A stretch of 64,000 bases of DNA from Tricharina praecox (taxonomy: Eukaryota), in assembly GCF_024521635.1 (NCBI RefSeq), contig NW_026250408.1, positions 1,116,001-1,180,000 of the forward strand, given 5' to 3'. Of this stretch, positions 14,552 to 64,000 are shown in pieces (position 1 is the first letter of the stretch; each line of letters starts with the position of its first letter). The notes under the pieces are model-generated. The model was not told the DNA's origin, did not search any database, and saw only the letters and a program-made list of their open reading frames with translations. The position numbers and the translations under genes were made by a program.

Positions 14552-14990
14552 TGTAACGTAACGTCACGTTACGCTGACTGAGTACGTACAAGCAGCCTCC
14601 TCCCGTGCTCCTTCATCCCTCATTACGTGTCAATTATCCTGCTCAGCTCGCTCCCCATTACCGGTACACACTAGGTCAGTAGGGCAAGCAAATAGTAAGT
14701 TGCGTCGAGTACGTAGAGCAACAGGAAAAGGAGATTCGAGACTGGGAGGTGCCTTTTAGTTTGTGAGGTTCACGTCACAAGTTATCACTCACATTGCGAG
14801 TGGCCGCACGTGAGTTGACTCAAGTAGAGTACAACCTCACAGTGATCATTCAGCTGCAGAAGACGATGAATCCGAGCGAGCAGAGTGCAAGGGAGGGTAA
14901 GAGAGGGCAGGGGGAGTGTGTGAGGGTTGATGCCGGTAGGGGCGAGGGAGCAAGTAGGAAACTTGTGAACGAAGAACAATGGGTATAACA
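14552..14990 (-). mobile_element. LTR-like repeat copy A (putative solo LTR, TG...CA bounded)
   Basis: Minus strand starts TGTTATACCC and ends CGTTACGTTACA. Segment 14736-14956 aligns in inverted orientation with 18937-19190. No matching target-site duplication found. Confidence 0.45.
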
Positions 14991-15979
14991 AGGTCAATAG
15001 AGTGCTAGGCCTTAACTATATCCCACAGAAAGCCGACAAAAGTCTTATAATCCTTTTGCAACATCCGCAGAGACTATATAAGGATTATGTAAGAAAAATG
15101 GACGAAAAGATACCAATTCAAGGCTTAGTACTTTTGATGATCCTTATGGTATGTAGAGTACCGTACCTATGTCAAATCATGTTCCCGTGGGGGTCATACA
15201 ACAGAATAGGTAATCTAAATTCAGATCCTTAGGTGCATGCATCAACTCGGAAGCCACGGCACTCGCTCCTGCCCACTGCCCAGAAACACATACGAACCAC
15301 CCCTGTACTATGTAAAACCGTGTGACCAGCACGGTTTCTTTGACCTGACCACACAAGCGACATTCCTTCCAAACATTTCTCTACGACCAGAAGGAATATC
15401 AAGATTTCAAGACTGCCAGGCATCACAGCGAGTGGAATGGAGGCGACTAACACAATTTTCTTTCGGGGAAATGGGGTTTTTGGTCGAGAGTGAGCGTATC
15501 AAAGTTGGAGGGACAGCTCCACTCCGGACTCAGCATTCAACCTTCAACCTTCAGGTGTACCCAACCATGCCCCCCTACAACCACCCAATCGCTAATGATA
15601 TCGTCTAGAAGCACATTTGTGAGCTGAGGAGCGGGGCGGGGCGGGGAAACCATTCTGGGGTAAATTTCTGCTCGTTGATTCCCCCGGCCACTGCAATCGC
15701 GATAAGTTGGGTTACTCGCACCGTATCGAAGCTCAAAGGGTGCCGAATCCTCGTCAGCCAACCGGAAATCGTGAAAACTCATCGTGCTTTCTAGGCAACG
15801 CTCATACCGAACGGGTGGGCTGAAAGGTATAGACGTCTACTTAAGCCTTTCCTCATTCTTCGCCGCCCTAAGTGAATGCGTAACACCCCTCCGCACCGGC
15901 CTCTCCCAACTAAACCGAATACCTATCTGATATTGTCCCATTAACCCAGCGGAGTTGAATTCATAATGACCCATCACCG

Positions 15980-18625
15980 ATGGAAGGTAAGCGTACAATG
16001 ACACCGGGGATCACTCGTTTGTAACAAAAACCTTTACAGGACATTATCTAATCTTCAGGCACACCTGCAAGACTAGGGATTCTCCGTCGAGCGGTGGGAA
16101 AGTGCCCTGGGTGTGCAACGAATTTCCGCCTTATGGCTGGGTAATTCCGGGGCAGATCTCTGTGGTGGACTGGCTGGAAGGTGCCTACCTAATTCCCCAA
16201 TACTGCCTTCTCGAAGCTCTCTGCTAACATTAATAGATCCGAAAGCCAAAAACCTGGTATTCGGGCTCAGAGCACCACCGCAAAGAATTCTCGATGGACG
16301 CCATATTGAGCCGTGCAGATATCTGGATGGATACGGAAGGATAATGCCTTACGAACAATCATACCATACGATACTGCGTCCAGTCTGGGCAACGGGCCCC
16401 TCGGTCTGTCCGAATGCGAACATCATGAGCCACCTGTTGGGCAGAGTGAAATCAACCGCGCAACTGAAGGACCCGCAACTTGTGAACGAGATAAACGCAG
16501 AGCTGGCTATCTCCAGCTATGACAGAGATGCCGGCGATTGTTTAGGCTTGGTGCACACGATCTTCTGCATCACTCGGGCATCCCTGATTCAAGCGTGCAA
16601 TTCATGCAAGCAGAGGACGTCCGAGTCTCTTCGCTTCATGCCAAAGTGTCCGACGTGGAAAGGCTTCGAGACGTGGGTAGTCCAAATGGCGGCCTGTGGG
16701 TCCCATCACTACCGGGTCGACCCAGACACTCCGGAGGACATCGACTACTTTTCGCATGTGCTATACCACCTGGCCGCCGAAATCCACCAAACGCAAACGC
16801 AAACCCTACACCCAGGCACAACGGGGGGCCATCCTAAATTTGTCGTTGACGAAAAATATCAGCGTTGAGTGCAGTCAGTCAACCTCCCTGAAGTCCTTGA
16901 GCTCATCTCATGGCTCATCGCACTGCTTGGAATCCCGCTGGCACTCCCCGACTCGGCACACTACTCAAGCCAGTATGCCGCGCTGGTGAGCCAGGCCATG
17001 CAGCGAGCGGAACGACTAAACATTTGCGCGCAGCGTGTGTGGGCTCTCGGCTCGGTGGCGCCTGGGCGCGAGCTGAGTCTCTTGTCACTGGTGCCTCCTA
17101 CAGACCTGGGGTATTCCGTTCGGGGCCATACCGGCCACGATATGTGCACCTCCGACTTCTGTCAGCAATCCACCATTAGCTTCACCTCGGTGGCGCAACT
17201 CCATTTGTGCTCTGTCCCTGGGCACTGCCTGCCTACCGAAGGCATGTTCTCTCAAGCGTTACTGAGCAGCGCCCTCAACCGCTCGGGTCTGGGCTCCGAA
17301 ACATTCGTGCCGACCGCCTAGACTTTAGATGGAAAGTCGCTCGTCGAGAAGGAGCAGCCTTTCATGGCCATTTCGCACGTCTGGTCCGACGGAACCGGGA
17401 AAGGGGCCTGAAAACCGGCCAAGTGAACCAGTGCCTGTGGCGACACTTTTGTGAGATGGCGCGGGAACTGGGATGCGAAGGGATCTGGTGGGATACCGTC
17501 TGCCTCCCTGAAGATAAGCGTGCACGCATCGAGGCTATCAATCGAATGCAGGATAATTACACGCACGCCACGGCCACGCTTGTCCATGACCGCTACTTAA
17601 GCTGCCTCCGGTGGACGGACGCTGCCTCAGCTTGTTTCGCCGTTGCCATGTCGACGTGGCTCACAAGAGGCTGGACCGCGTTGGAATTGCAACAGTCTCC
17701 AAAGGATGGGGTGTACGTGCAATTCGAGGACGATGACGGTAATCCGGTGCTCAAGAATCTTGAGGGCGACATCCTGTTACGGCTAGGACAACCGTCCCAT
17801 CGCCATCACCAGATAGCGAGCGCTCTGATCCGCAAGCTGCGAGCACCAGTACGGTTCCTTAACGACCTCCTCACGGTTATTGGACCGCGATACACATCCT
17901 AGACGCGGGACATGGCGATCATTTCGGGGCTCTTTGTGGGCGTCAAGAACCCAGCATCCATGACCCAGGAGGAAATCTACCAAGAAGTCCTGCGTACGAT
18001 TCAAGGCCGGGCCCGGCACGGAACCGTGTCGGTCAGCAATCTCTTCCACGGCACGACAACCATGATCAAGGGCGGATTCGGCTGGTGTCCACCAGATCTT
18101 TTCCGCATGCCAGTAGGAGACGGGCACAGCGAGCTTCATGTCCAGGATAACGGAGACCTCCTCGGAAGGTGGCAGATGCGGTGCCTCCTACGCCACGCGC
18201 GATGTGTGCGCGTCCCGGAAGGGACGCATCCCCTGATCCGCTCCAAGCTATACGTAGCCATGTCGGAGCCGCGGAGACACGTTCTGCTGCTCGAAGGGTT
18301 GGCGCAGCTGGAGCGCGCGCTCGTCGTGCGAGTGCGTACCACGCGCGCCGAAATCGCCGCCGGAACCTACGCCAAGGACGAAGCACTCCAGTGCGAATAC
18401 GTGGGTATCGTGCACTACGAACCTTCCGCGATAACCGAGCCCGAGTATCACCTTTCGGTGTTTTGTCGCATCGCCGACCCCAAAGACCTGCCCGACCTCC
18501 CGCCCACGAACATGGCTTGCGTTGTGGGCACGTTCAAGGGCGCAGGTGGCGGCCCGAAAGGCACCGGGCCGCTAGGCTGCGTCTGCTGGCAAGCTAACAT
18601 TTATCGCTTCACTCCGGGCGTATAG
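15980..18625 (+). pseudogene. HET (heterokaryon incompatibility)-domain protein gene interrupted by three in-frame stops and one 1-nt frameshift (pseudogene or editing-dependent gene)
   Basis: Exons 15980-15986, 16040-16180 and 16237 onward (MEGHYLIF...VPWVCNEFPPY...DWLEDPKAK). HET motifs FMAISHVWSDGTG, GIWWDTVCLP, AINRMQDNYTHA..TLVHD, WLTRGWTALEL. Stops: TGA 16866, TAG 17319, TAG 17900; frameshift at about 17409-17414. The 3' end is uncertain (possible last intron 18546-18625). Confidence 0.85.
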
Positions 18626-18900
18626 AGCGACGTCTATCTGGATATATCACGGGCCGGACCGGCAGCGTTGTGTGTGGAACACAGCAGTGAAGAGGACGAG
18701 GTTGTCCGGAAGAAACCCGGGTCGTGGGGAGAAAACTGTGGCACTTCATGAGGGCGTGCACGACCGCACTCTACGTATTTTCCTTGAGAATTAGTGTGGA
18801 CGTTGGGGAACTCTGGATTGCGCGAAGGGTGGGCTTGGGAAATTAGCTTATGGGGGTCAACTATTGTCATGTAAACAATTGAACTTCCCGGGTGCAGAGC

Positions 18901-19210
18901 TGAATACCACTGTGACTTTCTAGACTGCTGGAACCATACTTACTTCCCCGTCCCTACCAGCATCAACCCTCACACACCCATTTCACCGGTCATAGTAATC
19001 GACTCTCTGCCCTCCCTACTCTCTATTACTCTCTATTACCCTCTGCTCTCTCAGAGTCATCGTCTTCTGTAGCTGAATGACCACTGTGAGGTTGTACTCT
19101 GCTTGAGTCAACTCACGTGCAGTCACTCGTGAAGTGAGTGATAGCCCGTGATGTGAATCTCACCAACTAAAGGGCACCTCTGAGTCTCGATGATCTTTGT
19201 TACAACTTAC
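18901..19210 (+). repeat. LTR-like repeat copy B (partial, inverted relative to copy A)
   Basis: An ungapped core of about 150 nt (ctctgctc...atcgtcttctgYagctgaatgaYcactgtgaggttgtactct...gtctcga) matches the reverse complement of 14736-14885 with about 20 mismatches by manual count. Confidence 0.8.
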
Positions 19211-19891: not shown

Positions 19892-21750
19892 TCATACCCG
19901 CTCCACCTCCGCCTTCCTTCCACCCGCCCAAGCCCCCACAGCGACCACAACCGTAACCCAACACATGCACAGCGCAGTGACACCCACCGTCAGCGTAAGA
20001 GAGAACATGGCGTCGACACCTATTCGCTCCAGGTAATTGACTGTGTCCCTATTGCTGCACATAAACACCACTCCACCAGCGATGAGACAGAACGCGGTGA
20101 GCACTTCTGTCGGGGGACGCGTGGGCTGCGTGCTCCTTGGCGGAACTCTGAAGAATAGCAAGTACGTGAGCGACCTGCACACCGCCGCGGCGGCGAGGAG
20201 CGCGCCCCACTGTGTGTGTATCGTTGAGGAGAAGTGCGAGTGCTGGTGGTGCTGCGACATCAATGTTCCCAGCAGGAAGATGACGAGCGCGGGCAGGGGG
20301 TTGGGGGTGAACCCCGCGTTGTGCGCGGGGTGATCCGAGTGGTCCTGTCCCCCCAAGACCAGCCAGATCCAAGTGCTTTCTAGCAACAGACCCAGAAGTC
20401 CCCCACCGAGAAACATGAATGCGATCGACACGTGCTGGAGATCGCCGTGCGACCAGGCGCCGCCCCAGCTCGCTAGATGCTCGAGGAAGACGTTGGCGCA
20501 CCCGTAGAGGAAGATTCCGCCGCTTTCGACGGTTTCGCAGGTGAAGGCTCGGCTTGTCGTCGGCTTGAGGTTCCATGACTGCGGGTATCAGCAGGTGGGT
20601 AGGAGGAGAAAGGCCAGGGGGAAGGTACCCAGCCGAGCTCAGAAAAGGCACCGAGCCACCGGCTGAGCGTCAAGATTCCGTAGAGGAAGAAGACCCCGCC
20701 CTTGATGAAGTGCGCGAGCCCATTGAGCACACTGCTGCCCATCTGCTCTCGTCATCAGCCACCATCCATGCATCCATCTCTCGGAACATACGAGCGGAGC
20801 AACTCACAAAGATCCCGGCCCCCGTAACAATGCCCAAACAAATCTGCGTAAACCCCAGCGGAATAAGGAACCTCGCAATGACCGAGTAAACAAGATTACA
20901 GATCTTCACTACCCGTTCATTAAAAATCCCCGGCACGCTCGCCGACAGCGCATTTTCCAGGGTGGCTAAATCCACCCACCATCGTCCACGCGCCGATTTC
21001 TCCCCTACCCATTCCAGCCCGTGGTCCTCGTCGCCGTATCCCGACGACTCCTGATCCACCGACCCGCCATGCCCACTATCGGCGGAGCGCCGATCACTAT
21101 AAAGCCGCGAATACGCCTCGTCTTCATACGCAGGCACCGCCCTGAACCCGCCGCCGCCTCCGTGTTCGTGTCCCGAGTTTCTGACGACTCTTGCAAGCAT
21201 GCCGACGGCCGCCTGCACACCCAAGATTACCAGCAGCGCCCATCCCAGCTTCCGGTGGGAAGCCGCCGGATACAGGTCCTCCGTCAACCCGGCATGTACC
21301 GCCGCGAAAACGATTCCGGCAACGTTGGTGGTCAGGAACGAGATCTGCGCGGGAACGTGGTGGCGCGAACTAGCGAGTGAGAGCGTTGTTGCTGCGAGAG
21401 GTTGTCAGAGTGTCAGAGGTGACACCAATAAGGAGGCGGGCCAGCGATTAGGTGTGTAGTAGGTACTAACCGACAGGCATGATTATCACCCAGCTCAATA
21501 GCATGGTCAGGATGTGAAGGTATAGCCAGCCGCGATGGGGTGCGAGGGCGAAGTAGTATGCATTGCTTGCATCAGCTCCGGCGTTTGTGCTGATGCTGGT
21601 GTTGTGCGATGGCAGCGGATGCGAGTGGGCTTTGTCTGTGTGCATGTCCATGTTCATGTCGCCGTGCTCGTCTCCATGGTCGTGGGCGAGGGCCAGCGAC
21701 GCCAGGATCAGCAGCAGGGCCGCAGGCAAAAGTGTGGATCCAGTCTTCAT
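19892..21750 (-). CDS. Ytp1/DUF2427-family integral membrane protein
   Basis: Signal peptide then His/Met-rich N-terminus. WLYLHILTMLLSWVIIMPV, LYPAASHRKLGW, VLNGLAHFIKGGVFFLYG, NVFLEHL..WGGAWSHGDLQHVSIAFMFLGGGLLG, NPLPALVIFLLGTLMSQHHQ. Three introns. Confidence 0.85.
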
Positions 21751-37425: not shown

Positions 37426-40400
37426 ATGGATTTCCTCCGCTCAAAACAGTCCGGCATCCAGCGCGATTTCTCGGGCAGTCTGGCTGCCGCGCCTGATGTG
37501 TTTACTCTCGACCAGGTACCTATTGTCACCAGCGGGAATGGATAGCTATTGACACCTGGCTCCTCATAGGTCGCGAAGCTCGGCCTCTCCTCGACGATCT
37601 CCACTTTGGCCTACGACCCAGTGCAATCCCTCCTCGCGGTGGGCACATTCCAGAGCTCTTCCACCTCCGGCTGCGTGCACATATTCGGGCAGAAGCGCGT
37701 GCACGTCGTATTCCGACTCGCACGGAAAGCGTCCGTCAAGGCGGTGCAGCTATGCGATTCCCGCGCGGTCGTGCTGGACTCATCCAACGACATCAGCATA
37801 TTCGATCTTGCGTCGCCATTGGCAGCGGGCGTGGAGTACTCCCCGCCCGGAACGGTGACGACGATGCGCACGGAGCCGGGATTGGACTGGATCCTACTCG
37901 GAATGCAGACGGGAGAGGTCCTGGCGTACGATATCGACCGCCGCGTGGTCGCGCCGCTGAGGATTCCGAATCTGTGGAGGGAGCGCGCGCCGAAAGCGAG
38001 GCTGTCCCCCGTCGTGTCGCTTGCCCTGCATCCTAAGGATGTGGGCACCCTGCTGATTGCATACTCTGAGGGCGCGGTCATCTACTCGTTCAAGCAGGCG
38101 GCCGTGATGAGGTTCCTGGAGTTCGTGTTGCCGCCTGGCGCGCCCGGCGCGGATACGGAGCTGGCGACGATACGCACGCAAAGGAGGCCCGCGGTCACGC
38201 AGGCCCTCTGGCATCCTACCGGAACGTTCGTGTGCACGGCGCATGAGGACTCGGTGATGGCCGTGTGGAATCCGAAGGACGGGGCGCTGGTGCAGAGTCG
38301 GACGCTGGAGGACGCAGGCGTGCATCTGCCCGGAAGCCTACCGGGGGCGAGCGACGGTAGCGGGATGTCGGTGCGACAGCCGATCTACAAGATTGCGTGG
38401 TGCGCGACGAGTAATCCCGACGATACGTCGCTGCTGATTGCGGGCGGGAATCCGATGACTACCAGGTCGAAGGGCCTGGCGTTGATGGATCTTGGCCCGA
38501 CGCCGAATATGCTCACCTCGTCGGTACAGGTGCTCGCCGATCACTTTGCGAAACCTAGACGGCAGAGGATTCTGCCCATGCCTACGGAACATGACGTCGT
38601 CGACTTCTGTGTGATACCCAGGACGAGCCCGCATTATGGCGGGGGCTACGATCCGCTGGCGGTCATTGCGCTGTTGGCGTCGGGCGAACTAGTGACGTTG
38701 CGATTCCCGGACGGGCAACCGCTGTCGCCGGCGGCATTACTGCATCCCTCGCTTATCCTGACGCACCCGTTCTCGACGCGCGTCGACGTTTCCGCGGTGC
38801 AGCGGCAGCGCTGGCTAGGAATGGCGCGGCTACCGTCGCAACTGTCCCAGCCGCCACCGGAAATGATCGTGGGCGGGATTGAACACCCCAAGCCGCTGCG
38901 GCGCTACGAGAACCGCACCGTCATCCAGAGCTCGCATCCTAACGGCACAGTGCGCATCTGGGACTTGGGACACGGCGATGAAATTGAGAATGGCGATGTC
39001 TTGGAGATCGATGTGGCCCGCGTGCTGCTGCGCGCCGTAGACCTCAACGTCGAGTGCGTCTCGTTGGCGGGCATCTCCGGTGAGACCGCGGTCGGAATGG
39101 AAACGGGCGAGGTCGTGGTGTTTCGCTGGGCTAAGAATACGGCTATGGGCCGCCACCAGGAGGAGAAGAAGCCTGAGGGTGACCAAGTGATTACAGATGT
39201 TCGTATGAGAGCGGATCCGGATGTGAAGGAGGGGTTGATGCCCGCTTGCATTCTCGATCAGAAGTGCGGGGCTGTTATCGCGCTGAAGATGAGTGATGTT
39301 GGCTTCTGCGCCGTGGGGTATCAGACTGGGCATCTGTGTGTGCTGGACATGAGGGTGAGTACTGACAGACACTCTTGAAGCTGGAGGTTTTGCAAAGGCT
39401 CATGATGCATTCAGGGACCGGCGGTAATTTTCCATCAGAGCTTAGGCTCGCTCAGCAAGGACAAGCGAACGGGCTTCAGGAGATCTCACAATCCAGCCGC
39501 GGCAACGGAGAAGGCTACGTGTCTCGAATTTGGCGTGATGACGCTCGAGGGCGACGGTATGATTTATGAAGAGTACAAGGTGGATCACGGCTGACCTCGA
39601 CGCAGAATTCTCGTCGATCGCTCTCTTCGTGGGCACAAACCTGGGCAGAGTCCTGACCTTCAAGCTCCTACCGCAGCAGGGCGGCGGCTTCACCTGCACC
39701 TATGAGGGCGTGAACCACCTTGACGATAACGCACCCATCCTTTCCATAACCCCCATAAACTCCGACTCCGGCAAAAGGACATGGGCCACCCCGCAAGCCA
39801 CCGCAAACCTTCGAGAGGGCATCAAAACCCCCGGTGTGATCGTCTGTGCCTCGCAGAACGACGCACGGATCTTCAAGCCATCGCAGGCGCGCGGCGCGCA
39901 CAAGACCTGGGGCGATGAGTTCACCGTGCACGCCGCGAGCGTGTGCGAGCTCGAGGCGTACGGGATCTGCCTCACGACCGTGACCTCCCTAGGCCTGATC
40001 ATAAACTACACCGTCCCGGGGCTAAAACCGATCGGCGCGCCCCTCTCCGTCAAGAGCGTACTGGAGGCCGAGCGGCTGCACCTAACAACGGTGCTGGAGA
40101 GCGGCCACATCCTTGGCTGGAGCGGCGAGCACGAGCTCACACTGCTCTACCAGTGGGGACTGGATAAGACCCCCGCCGCCCTCCCGCTCGACACGCTGTA
40201 CAACCCCGCCACGCCCCCGCCGTCCCGCCCCACCATCAGCAACCTCCAATGGCTCGCCGGGACGCAGTACATAACCACCGCAGACCTGGACCTACTAATC
40301 GGCGGCCCAGACCGTCCCATGTCCTTCGCGCAGCAGCAGCAGTTGCGCGATTCGGCGGCCGCCGAGCGCGAGGCCGCTAGAAGACTGCAGGACCCCGCCT

Positions 40401-40618
40401 CCGCCGCCCAGGCTGGTCCCGCGGGTCAGGCAGGCGAGGGCGTCTTCGCGGGCATGGCTAGGAATATGCGCGAGCGCACAGAGAAGCTGAGTTTTACTAC
40501 CGACACGATGGATCGGCTTGAAGAGAGTAGCGCGAGCTTTGCGGAGGATGTTAGTAAGTATGTCAGTTCGCAGAAGAAGAAGGCGATCCTTGGGGGGATT
40601 ACGGGGAAGTGGTTTTAG
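37426..40618 (+). CDS. SRO7: Sro7/Sro77 lethal-giant-larvae (tomosyn) family WD40 protein
   Basis: LAYDPVQSLLAVGT, LALHPKDVGTLLIAY, VIALKMSDVGFCAVGY..LDMRGPAVI, PPSRPTISNLQWLAGTQY, C-terminal SNARE-like helix. Three introns. Confidence 0.92.
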
Positions 40619-40975
40619 ACTGGAGATGGGGAGGAGATGGATGGAATGGATGGAATGGGCGGTGTTGGTTTCGTTGACTTGATACCCCTGAGAAGCTGTT
40701 ATTCAATGATTAGAATGTACCAAGTGATCGTAATACATCTCGATCTACATAACTCTGGCAACGGTGACTTCGAAGTAGAACTGCCACCACCGCCACCACC
40801 GATTTCATGGCACTCTCATCTACGGGCTGTATTATATAGCAACATCACACTATATAGCAACATCACTCACCCTTGCCAGGTGCTCGTGATACCTATCAAC
40901 AATTGCACCCCCCACATCTACCACGCCCACCACGCCCTCCCTCCCTCCAGACTCCACAGCCTACACCATCTAAGT

Positions 40976-41891
40976 CTAAGTCTGAGTCTGAGTCTTCATC
41001 TGCTCCACAACCCACGCCACCACCTCCCCCAAGCCCCTCACGCTCACACTCGGCGTCCCCAGCCCATCACTCCACCCGCTCCCCTCGCGGTCGACCCAAA
41101 CCGCAAGCATGCCCACACTCCTTGCGCCCACGATGTCAAACGGATTCGCACTGACGAGGACCGCGCTGCTCGCCCCACCAGCACCAGTACCAGCGGGCAC
41201 TCCCAGCTCCCTAAGCAGATGCGTATACGCCGCGGGATGGGGTTTGAAGCACTTCCCTGTCCCCCCACCCACACCGTCACCAGCGCTGTCAACGCTGATA
41301 CAGCGCAACTCCCACAGCTCACCCAGCCCACCCAGCCCCTCACCGTTCTTACTTGCAGCAGCAGTGGCAGCAGCAGTGGCAGCGCGAAACTGCGCCTCAG
41401 TCCCGTTCGTGAACACTACCGCATCAACCACAGCTTCCTCCCCGCCCCCGCTCTTGCGCACTGCGGCTAGCGTAGCCAGCGCATCCAGCAGTGCTGCTAC
41501 GTCGTCGAACGGAGCCAGTTGATCGTACGCGGCCAGCACGTCTTCCACCGCTGCGGGGGAGAGGGTCACGTTTGCGCTGTGCAGTGCGTCGAGGAGCGAG
41601 AGGCGGGTGACGGTTGAGAAGGGGATGTATTTCTCTGTCCTCAATACGAACACTAGTCAGCCGGGGGGGCGGGGGGTGAGAGGGGGAGCGGGGGAAAGGA
41701 CCCATAGAGTTCAGCCGCCAGGTGTACTCCAGCTGGAGTTTGCGCCAGTCTGTGGTAATCGTGTCTGCGAGCGTGGAGCGGTGCGGGGTGTCGGGGAGGT
41801 GCGAGGCGAGTTTTGGTGCTATCGAGGAGGTGGACAGGAGCGTGCCGTAGAGGTCGATTGCGAGGATTTTCTTGGGGGTTAGGAGCGACAT
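40976..41891 (-). CDS. Haloacid dehalogenase type II-like hydrolase
   Basis: ILAIDLYGTLL, WRKLQLEYTWRLNSM, intron 41701-41635, VVFTNGT, FKPHPAAY, LVSANPFDIVGARSVGM. Confidence 0.9.
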
Positions 41892-61416: not shown

Positions 61417-64000
61417 TTAACACAGTCCCGCTTTCGACATCTTCATGATAGCGATAACGGGCTCGCTGATGCCGCGGCCCTCGACCGCTCCCAGCGTCAT
61501 TCCCGAGCGGTAGCCCATCTTCTCGAGCATGAGACGGCCACGGTTGTCCGCGCTGAGCGCGGGCGCCTCGGCTCCGACCTTCATGCCCTCGCGCAAGCCG
61601 CCGCTTCTTGCACCGCCGCCGCCACCGCCGCCACCGCCTCCAGGCGCTTTCCGTCCGCCGCGGGATCCAACGTCCATGCGCTTTGCGAACCGGCCGGTGC
61701 GGAGGACCGAGTCGATGCCTTCCTCGTCGAACTCGAAGACCCCAGAGCGACTGGTCTTGATAAGGGTGGTGAAGCGGCCGGTACCCTTGCCGACGCTCTT
61801 GCTCTTGAGGTTCAGCTTGTTCGCGAGGTTGTGCACAACCTTACGGTCGAATTTCGACATGGGAGGCAGAGCAAGACTGCGAATGGTAAGTCGAGATCCA
61901 TTGGGAAAGATTGGGCCACATACCTGTCGTTCCCGCGAAGCATGAACGTGCGGATCTCCTCGTACACCTGTGTCATGGTCATGCCCACTTTGTACTTCTC
62001 GACGAGCAGCGGCTGGCCAGTCTTGCGGGCCTTCGAGTTAAGCATTCCCTGGGCGCGCAGCTCCTCCCGTTGGATCTTGCGTAGCTTCTTCTTCTCTCTG
62101 TCGCGCTGCCAGGAAGTCGCCATCTGCGCCTCCATATCTGAGTCTGATAGGTTGAGATCTGGCATAATCTTTCCCTTACCCTTCTTCTTGCTGACGATCG
62201 ATGGCCTTTCCCAATCCATGACGAAGCCGTCGTACTCTTCAGCCATCTTGGATGCGGAGGGGTAATGACCTGACCTGGGATCGGGCGTGATGTCAGGCAG
62301 TCCTTGACGTGATTTACGTTTCTTATTCTGTTTGCGACGCTGGCCAATAGGGAAGAAGTCGTCATCCAGATCCATAATCTCAGGGAAGCCATCGTCAACA
62401 ATACCCAGCATTTTCCGCTCCTCGTGACGCTGCAGCATACGGGCAAGTTTGAGATCCAGATCTTCATCGTTCTCGTCATCATCCTCGTCTTCTTCGTCAT
62501 CTTCCTCATCGGAGCTGTCTGAACCGCTGCTTTCTGACATCTGTGCCGCCTGCTTAGCTACGAAGGTTTCGAACTTCTTGATATGAGCCGCAGCCGACGA
62601 ATCAAGAATATCAGCAAGAGTCCAAGTGGCGTCGTCGGTCTCGTAGCCGTCCCACTTTATTAGGTACTGCAAACCGCTGGGACGAGAACGTTTCCGGAGA
62701 ACCGATGAGATCACACCCTTAGGGCCTTCGTCGTCGGTGCTCACGGCATCAAAGTCCTCGAGCCGATCTTCCGTCCAGCCAATCTTGTACCGGCGAACAG
62801 CATCAGAGTCCGAAGCTTCCTCATCCTCGTCGGTCGATGAGTCGTCGACCCATGCGGAATCGTCGACATCGAGGTCGCGAAGATTAACTGTCATGGTAGG
62901 CTGATTGCCGCCACTCGCCAACGCTTCTTCCCGCATCTGAGCCGCGATATTCTCGATGTAGTCCTCGGCTGCTTCATCAAGGCCGCGACCGCGCTTGGGC
63001 GGCTTGCGGCGTTTGTTCCCTTGCGTGGCTCGCTTGTTAAATTTGCCTTTGGATTCGAGTCGGACAAAGTCTTCCTCCGGCTCTGGTGTCTTGGCTTCTA
63101 TAAGCTGCGGTAGGGCTATAGATGTGGATGATACAACAATCGTGGAGGCAGTAGTAGTCACAACAACTGGTTCAGTGCGGATGAACGGTTCGGGACTGAC
63201 GAAGGTGGTGGTAGCAGGCTTGGTAGTCTTCTTCTGTGACTTAGGCGGCGGGGCACCACGTCGACCCTTGGGTACAAAGACAATCTTCTCACTGGTATTG
63301 GATGAGATGGAAGGAGTTGGCGATGGGGCTCGCACGACGGGAGCCTCAAACTTCGGTACGACATTGGTATCGCCAGTAAGGTCCATGACGAATTCTAAGT
63401 TCTCCTCCGATTCCTTCTCCACCGGTTCAGCCATCTCGTTACCACCCAGATCGAGCTTACCGACGTCGAGCCCTTCCATCTTGTCCTCGTCGAGTCCGGC
63501 TATCTTGTCCTCGTCGCTTGACTGCTTCTCGGCTGATAGAGGCGTTGAAATCTCTGCCGGGGTGGTGGTTGGTGACGAATCAATTCCCTCCGCGGGTCCA
63601 TCCCTACCCATCGTCTCGTCGCGAACTTCCTCACCAGGCTCCGCATTGAGGGGTTTCAACAGGTCGGCAGGGTCGAGTGCGCCGGCTGGGATGAAGCTGA
63701 TTGGACCCAATGTTCGAAGTTGCGAGCTCCAACTGTGTCGTTCCGTATTCCGCGCCTCTTCCCGCATCGAAAACGCTGTCGAAACATCAGCAGCTATATC
63801 TACGGGGAGCAAGACAAGACAAACCATGGCTACCCGGCGAGCCCGGATATTCCTCAGATTGGAATTGACTGTCCCTGCCACCGAAATCTGTACCTCCGCG
63901 TCCACGACCACGCCCGCCTCCGCCTCTACCTCTGTAGCCTCCTCGTGCGCCGCCACCACGCGAACTCCCTTCTCCAGCGTTGCCACCTCCTCTTCCTCTA
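61417..64000 (-). CDS. SQS1: Sqs1/Pfa1-like R3H and G-patch domain protein; 5' end beyond the window
   Basis: WQRDREKKKLRKIQREELRAQG; intron 61923-61877; R3H domain LPPMSKFDRKVVHNLA..LKSKSVGKG..RFTTL; G-patch NRGRLMLEKMGYRSGMTLG. Confidence 0.88.

Follow-up and report, generated by a model that had tools for sequence, protein, structure and literature searches.

A HET-domain gene of Tricharina praecox interrupted at four tryptophan positions, probably a recent and still expressed pseudogene

Do premature stops that all fall on tryptophan (Trp) codons mark a gene held in reserve for mRNA editing, or a gene that has simply died? The question is raised by a broken HET-domain gene of Tricharina praecox, located at 15980–18625 in a stretch of 64,000 nucleotides (nt) from contig NW_026250408.1 (assembly GCF_024521635.1, positions 1,116,001 to 1,180,000), which is called the window here. 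A first-pass annotation, made from the sequence alone, had proposed a cell-death toxin that is locked by several premature stops and unlocked by adenosine-to-inosine (A-to-I) editing. In this study, the lesions were compared with homologous proteins and with public sequencing runs. The gene is probably an expressed unitary pseudogene of the HET-domain kind, inactivated recently while its transcription and splicing go on; its all-Trp pattern would largely be due to chance and to the selection of the locus.

Gene structure, lesions and the HET domain

The spliced reading frame of the HET gene lies on the + strand and has 845 codons by exon joining, from ATG 15980 to the stop codon TAG at 18623–18625, close to the roughly 840 codons of the first-pass annotation. 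The four lesions described there (16866, 17319, 17409 and 17900) were all found at those places, with the codons as given. Among the stop-to-stop frames, 16077–16868 ends with TGA and 16869–17321, in the same phase, ends with TAG. Reading then passes from phase 0 to phase 2 at 17409–17410 (GCC TG AAA ACC), where one base is missing; the phase-2 frame closes at TAG 17900–17902, and reading resumes over 17903–18625. The longest product from the first ATG stops at codon 260. Both premature TAGs lie within the same motif, CCTAGAC (17317–17323 and 17898–17904), as had been noticed before. The broken frame retains 18 TGG, 19 CAA, 19 CAG and 8 CGA codons, and no glutamine (Gln) or arginine (Arg) codon has been turned into a stop; the earlier observation that the stops spare Gln codons is thus borne out by all 38 of them.

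The features of the gene are given below. Transcript evidence comes from public sequencing runs: the region 15900–18700 was present in 8 of the 9 runs listed, and assembled contigs of four (X1 to X4) were compared. X1 is a soil metagenome and a possible source of the window DNA, and X2, X3 and X4 belong to three other studies. The lesion columns were aligned with the six best of 90 homologues.

15454..18856, + strand: approximate transcript, from the 3294-nt spliced X2 contig, which extends 446 nt past 15900 and 156 nt past 18700; outer extent estimated on the assumption of no further introns
15980..15986, + strand: coding part of exon 1 (ATG GAA G), start codon uncertain
15987..16039, + strand: intron 1, 53 nt, GT..AG, skipped in the X2, X3 and X4 contigs and kept in X1
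16040..16180, + strand: exon 2, from spliced contigs and the frame
16181..16236, + strand: intron 2, 56 nt, GT..AG, skipped in the X2, X3 and X4 contigs and kept in X1
16237..18625, + strand: exon 3, the remaining broken frame to the natural stop, by frame reading
16866..16868, + strand: lesion 1, in-frame TGA (CGT-TGA-GTG) with G at −1 of the A, present in RNA contigs; Trp in 6/6 homologues
17121..17123, + strand: CGG (Arg), a fifth altered Trp codon, by T-to-C and not G-to-A; column Trp in 6/6 homologues
17319..17321, + strand: lesion 2, in-frame TAG (GCC-TAG-ACT), present in RNA contigs; Trp in 6/6 homologues
17349..17584, + strand: HET domain core (PF06985, profile positions about 1–85 of 146), split by lesion 3; from profile matches of the gene piece and of the homologues, mapped via the alignment
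17409..17410, + strand: lesion 3, remnant TG with one base missing, frame shift −1, same letters in the four runs with no gaps; Trp in 4/6 and Gly in 2/6 homologues
17849..17902, + strand: 54-nt GT..AG stretch taken as an intron in the public 371-residue model, skipped by none of the compared contigs
17900..17902, + strand: lesion 4, in-frame TAG (TCC-TAG-ACG), present in RNA contigs; Trp in 5/6 and Leu in 1/6 homologues

An out-of-frame ATG at 15966 precedes that at 15980, and after splicing a frame from it would terminate after 10 codons. The first approximately 65 residues lack a counterpart in most homologues, which leaves the true start uncertain.

The piece 17411–17899 matched the Pfam HET profile (PF06985) with 27.9 bits (E = 3.3e-6; cut-off, 22.5), its residues 12–58 aligning with profile positions 37–84. 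Five of the six close homologues scored 23.0–34.2 bits against the same profile, and P0002 scored 18.4, under the cut-off; the matches of these six covered profile positions 1–85 only, of 146. Since the piece following the shift starts at profile position 37 and the homologues match from 1 to 85, the frameshift lies inside the HET domain. Judged by this profile match, the gene is a HET-domain gene, as the first-pass annotation had named it, and like other HET domain proteins it exceeds the Pfam cut-off. No Pfam match was found in the N-terminal ~400 or the C-terminal ~240 residues. Protein-cluster look-ups with the regions flanking the HET domain returned ascomycete clusters, in one of which 42% of the members carried DUF8212.

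Homologues were sought with the C-terminal 404 residues, X being placed at the stop and longer proteins being sought, and 90 matches were obtained. The closest were proteins of 718, 719 and 757 residues with 62, 60 and 54% identity, and the next three had 43–46%. Among the more distant matches, HET-plus-ankyrin proteins from Penicillium, Aspergillus and Fusarium predominated. The intact relatives are proteins of approximately 720–820 residues in which a HET (TIR-like) cell-death domain is preceded by an unannotated N-terminal region and followed by a conserved C-terminal region of ~240 residues. A function in cell death or heterokaryon incompatibility is known only for other HET proteins (PMC12881547). 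The window gene differs from HET proteins with NACHT/WD40 in having neither NACHT nor WD40, lacks the ankyrin repeats of its distant matches, and is broken.

The searches returned neither an orthologue nor an intact allele; identity to the best relatives is 54–62%. A metagenome scan for orthologues yielded 38 loci, all 31–50% identical. In a search for proteins of similar length, the 100% match was the HET locus's own fragment and all others were at most 54% identical; members of the cluster at 90% identity or more were only fragments or models of the HET locus itself, including a 237-residue fragment that corresponds to 17903–18625.

Transcripts and the public gene model

Because the X2, X3 and X4 contigs skip two GT..AG introns, the HET gene is transcribed and spliced; the X1 contigs keep both introns. 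Run X4, listed as 'DNA?', yielded a contig on 15900–16391 without either intron, which indicates spliced RNA or cDNA. The RNA contig of X2 reaches ~530 nt upstream of ATG 15980, to ~15454. Over 16235–18700, neither the 3294-nt contig of X2 nor the 3005-nt contig of X3 departs from the window by a single letter or gap. The X4 contig covers the four lesion sites with identical letters and no gaps, and the lesion letters of the X1 contigs are the same as those of the window.

An assembly error in the A-run at 17409, which the first-pass annotation had kept open as a proviso, is ruled out: four A's, without gaps, are present in all four compared runs. The same letters in the spliced contigs of three other studies and in X1 mean that the one-base deletion is real. 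As it is present in the mRNA, editing that replaces base for base, such as A-to-I editing, therefore cannot restore a full-length protein, and with this the proposed toxin locked by stops and unlocked by editing loses its central mechanism for the present sequence. The first-pass annotation had also pointed to A-to-G changes at 16868, 17320 and 17901 as a check. The consensus RNA of X2, X3 and X4 keeps A at all three positions and hence TGA, TAG and TAG; these contigs are consensus sequences from which minority variants are dropped, and they come from samples of unspecified developmental stage. Any editing in these samples is below the consensus level.

Could a full-length protein still be made by recoding? 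This would take a −1 slip at GCC UGA A, giving ...GKGA-L-KTGQ..., together with read-through or editing of the stops. A −1 shift at 17406–17411 does enter the correct frame and the sequence downstream is conserved, but on reading the sequence no slippery heptamer of the form X XXY YYZ was seen at the break, the local fold was no more stable than its shuffles (z = +1.06), and three more stops would have to be bypassed. Recoding is scarcely credible here.

The same contigs bear on the public gene model. The T. praecox model P0154, a hypothetical protein of 371 residues with the accession XP_051341742.1, begins at an internal methionine and reads ...LRAP followed directly by TRDMAI..., dropping 17849–17902 with TAG 17900 and the conserved GPRYTSW motif. 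No joint for a splice at 17849–17902 was found in any contig of the four compared runs. Because no RNA contig skips this stretch, the 371-residue model is an annotation patch with an unsupported intron.

Tryptophan lesions, chance and degree of decay

In the alignment, the lesion columns were Trp in 6/6 (16866), 6/6 (17319), 4/6 (17409) and 5/6 (17900, WWLWWW) homologues, so that the assignment of the four positions to Trp in the first-pass annotation was upheld to this extent. Trp was present in at least three of the six homologues at 19 columns; of these, the window keeps TGG at 14, while three others hold a stop, one the broken codon and one CGG (Arg). On the preferred reading, three G-to-A transitions made Trp codons into TGA, TAG and TAG, and a one-base deletion in or beside a fourth Trp codon shifted the frame within the HET domain. 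As the coding sequence contains only 3 homopolymer runs of at least five bases, a plausible route to lesion 3 would be a change of TGG to TGA, giving five A's in a row, one of which was then lost.

How surprising is it that every lesion falls on Trp? The Trp share of the opportunity for nonsense changes was 22–36% (transition/transversion weights 2–5, with or without a twofold GC>AT bias) and 49% if only transitions are counted. If only transitions occur, three stops out of three at Trp has P = 0.117. For a frameshift placed at random, the chance of hitting a Trp codon is 22/845 = 0.026, and four G-to-A events at Trp, which include the supposed route to lesion 3, have P = 0.002–0.012, or 0.057 for transitions only. 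All these chance values are post hoc, the locus having been chosen for its pattern. Since TGG has the most transition routes to a stop and the locus was selected in this way, the concentration on Trp may be taken as mostly chance.

A variant genetic code is excluded by inference only: the HET gene itself ends in TAG and its neighbours are read in the standard code.

Several results weigh against an ordinary pseudogene with a chance pattern. The first group concerns Trp. With the weights of 2–5, with or without the GC>AT bias, all three stops at Trp has P = 0.011–0.046, likewise a post hoc figure, and invariant Trp columns were altered more often than other invariant columns (3/14 vs 4/144; Fisher, 0.016). 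In tblastn alignments of 38 distant metagenome loci of the family to P0002, 17 in-frame stops were found, 8 of them at gaps and probably in introns; none of the 9 stops aligned with a residue was at Trp (C, P, R, S, T, R, R, F and N), so the Trp-stop pattern is no habit of the family.

The second group concerns the scarcity of other decay. Of the 158 columns without variation among the six homologues, 7 are changed in the window: two are stops and the rest are W345R, A597V, K609M, A613S and A726S. These five missense changes compare with 7, 6 and 13 in the intact proteins P0002, P0003 and P0004, each at its own corresponding columns. Three neutral nonsense changes would bring approximately 10 extra missense changes at invariant columns; given a baseline of 6–8.3, the probability of five or fewer is 0.007–0.025, with a likelihood ratio of 12–20 against a neutral phase. 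In a wider comparison (110 homologues, residues 396–845), non-stop mismatches numbered 2, 4 and 7 at columns conserved to at least 95, 90 and 80%; the six close homologues had 0–4, 4–9 and 9–15 at such columns, which places the window within the intact range. Identity to the close relatives downstream of each stop was no lower than among the intact ones. The disabling lesions thus outnumber what the other decay would lead one to expect, an anomaly that is real but modest.

Two results bear on the rate of change of the gene as a whole. When each of the four close sequences is scored at the columns on which the remaining three agree, the window departs at 60/330 and the others at 50/320, 29/299 and 45/315. 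In a tree from 640 gap-free columns (LG+G4), the terminal branch of the window was 0.456 vs 0.336–0.383 for the others, the support for the nodes among the close four being weak, at 44. The somewhat longer terminal branch fits some relaxation of constraint, but the extra changes do not lie at constrained columns. By estimate, not computation, counting the frameshift with a generous indel rate makes the missense deficit less striking.

The surplus of disabling over missense changes, in a gene that is still transcribed, would also be expected from selected silencing in several hits. The HET protein would have turned harmful, by auto-activity or through an incompatible partner, one leaky stop would have been insufficient, and lesions would have been stacked faster than under neutrality. 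This is our own suggestion, and it leaves lesions confined to Trp unexplained when 38 Gln and 8 CGA codons were available; we regard it as very unlikely. The expressed pseudogene remains the preferred reading. The window gene resembles ordinary transcribed unitary pseudogenes in its several disabling lesions, its transcription and a gene model patched by an invented intron, and differs from them in that the usual missense decay is undetectable. We infer both the recency of its inactivation and the chance origin of its pattern.

Repeat-induced point mutation (RIP) left no signature. The RIP indices of the HET gene, TpA/ApT and (CpA+TpG)/(ApC+GpT), are 0.63 and 1.20 and fall inside the spread shown by the 24 tiles of the window, its GC content is 0.557, like that of its neighbours, and no paralogue of it was found within the 64-kb window. 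An origin as a RIP-mutated repeat copy is ruled out on these grounds, in agreement with the argument against RIP made in the first-pass annotation.

The window contains an inverted repeat that brackets the HET gene:

14736..14956, no strand assigned: left arm of the inverted repeat
18937..19190, no strand assigned: right arm, 84–88% complementary to the left

The arms, of approximately 220–250 nt and ~4 kb apart, enclose the whole HET transcription unit and are the only two copies in the window; no target-site duplications were recognised at the ends of the repeat. They may mark the termini of a gene-carrying element, or a short repeat may have inserted twice. The HET gene is outside any obvious repeat-rich island, and 5451–59804 is ordinary housekeeping territory, with LETM1-like, AAR2, DUF2427, UCH, metallo-beta-lactamase, Lgl/Sro7-like, COG3, RCC1 and CAP59-type mannosyltransferase genes. 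Among named matches, the AAR2 protein is closest to that of Geopyxis carbonaria, with 46% identity. On the − strand, a 728-residue open frame with a chromo domain (PF00385, E = 2.1e-8) occupies 61812–63998 and runs off the window end; either a chromodomain protein or a piece of a retroelement may be encoded there.

Three other candidates for genes with premature stops in the window were rejected. At 660–1592/1593–2936 (+), with TAG at 1590–1592, a C-rich leader of non-coding appearance is followed by a low-complexity protein rich in Pro, Gln and Thr that begins from a methionine just past the TAG. The in-frame TAG of 39563–41470 appears to be the normal stop codon of the Lgl-like gene, and across 20049–21404 the real frame is uninterrupted in another phase.

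A possible editing history and what the locus means

Although the present sequence is beyond repair by editing, it may have a history as an editing target. The TAGs would have been long tolerated, with UAG converted to UGG in the sexual stage, until a very recent death by the deletion and perhaps also by the TGA. Before the deletion, the HET gene would then have been silent in mycelium and active in fruiting bodies, like the premature-stop-correction (PSC) pseudogenes of Fusarium graminearum.

The taxon favours such a history. T. praecox is a Pezizomycete of the Pyronemataceae, the family of Pyronema, a genus named in the first-pass annotation and one in which sexual-stage editing has been reported (PMC5381528, PMC11087585). 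For Pyronema confluens, 149 stop-loss sites are among those reported as A-to-I edited in the sexual stage (PMC5381528), and the Pyronema system is probably of separate origin from that of the Sordariomycetes (PMC11087585). Restorative UAG editing exists in F. graminearum and N. crassa; 71 PSC pseudogenes are reported, 6 of them with two sites, and their TAGs arose mainly from TGG by G-to-A (PMC10776026). In the window gene, a premature UAG stands at a Trp codon of the relatives at 17319 (6/6) and at 17900 (5/6), the third stop being TGA. The gene is transcribed and spliced, and beyond the lesions its coding sequence has no measurable decay (the P of 0.007–0.025 given above).

The local context of the stops gives a divided answer. 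The preferences reported for F. graminearum, which are not those of Pezizomycetes, are C or U at −2, a strong U at −1, A or G at +1, +3 and +4, and G at +2 (PMC9600606). Both TAGs agree with these preferences at −2 (C), −1 (U) and +1 (G) and depart from them at +2 and +3, where their A and C are depleted in that species; the TGA at 16866 has G at −1, the context least favoured there. In folds of ±30 nt, A16868 was within a stem, A17320 fell into an interior loop, and only A17901 of the three was placed in a hairpin loop, one of 14 nt; no such fold was more stable than its shuffles.

Other observations count against an editing history. The frame stays broken after editing of the stops, the 1-nt deletion being present in the four compared runs, so that nothing is restorable now; and no edited letter appears at any of the three stops in the consensus RNA of X2, X3 and X4, within the limits of stage and of minority variants given above. 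The words 'HET', 'Heterokaryon' and 'incompatibility' are absent from tables S1–S6 of PMC10776026, and no work linking A-to-I editing with HET genes was found in the literature searched. Stops shared with orthologues have not been seen, no relative closer than 62% identity having been found.

The window gene shares with the F. graminearum PSC pseudogenes a TAG at an ancestral TGG, transcription, good conservation, U at −1 and G at +1, and differs from them by the TGA with G at −1, a real frameshift and unedited consensus RNA. It has four lesions, whereas at most two editing sites, in 6/71 genes, are reported for that system, which moreover is Sordariomycete while the window gene is in a Pezizomycete. 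The rfk-1 gene of the Neurospora Sk-2 spore killer (bioRxiv 10.1101/2020.12.30.424869) embodies the same idea, in that the long form of the killer requires editing of an early UAG; it is a meiotic-drive gene with a single stop, an intact frame and no HET domain, and the frame of the window gene is broken. Taken together, these points make a past as a restorative-editing target unlikely. The more specific scheme, in which before the deletion a HET cell-death gene was silenced in mycelium by two or three Trp stops and switched on in fruiting bodies by A-to-I editing, and in which deletion-free alleles might still work so, is doubtful to a somewhat greater degree.

As it stands, and with the expressed pseudogene as the preferred reading, the locus would be another dead member of a fast-turnover family and the occasion for correcting a public gene model. 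What gives it further interest is the conjunction of the only non-Sordariomycete family with reported sexual-stage A-to-I editing, the Pyronemataceae, and lesions only at Trp in an expressed gene without detectable decay. If the editing scheme were true, the gene would be the first premature-stop-correction gene outside the Sordariomycetes and the first HET or immune-type executioner gated in this way. Should deletion-free strains exist whose TAGs undergo editing in apothecia, this would show an independent origin of restorative editing in Pezizomycetes and its gating of a cell-death domain there; if the TAGs are not edited, the locus would serve as a worked example of how misleading an all-Trp stop pattern can be.

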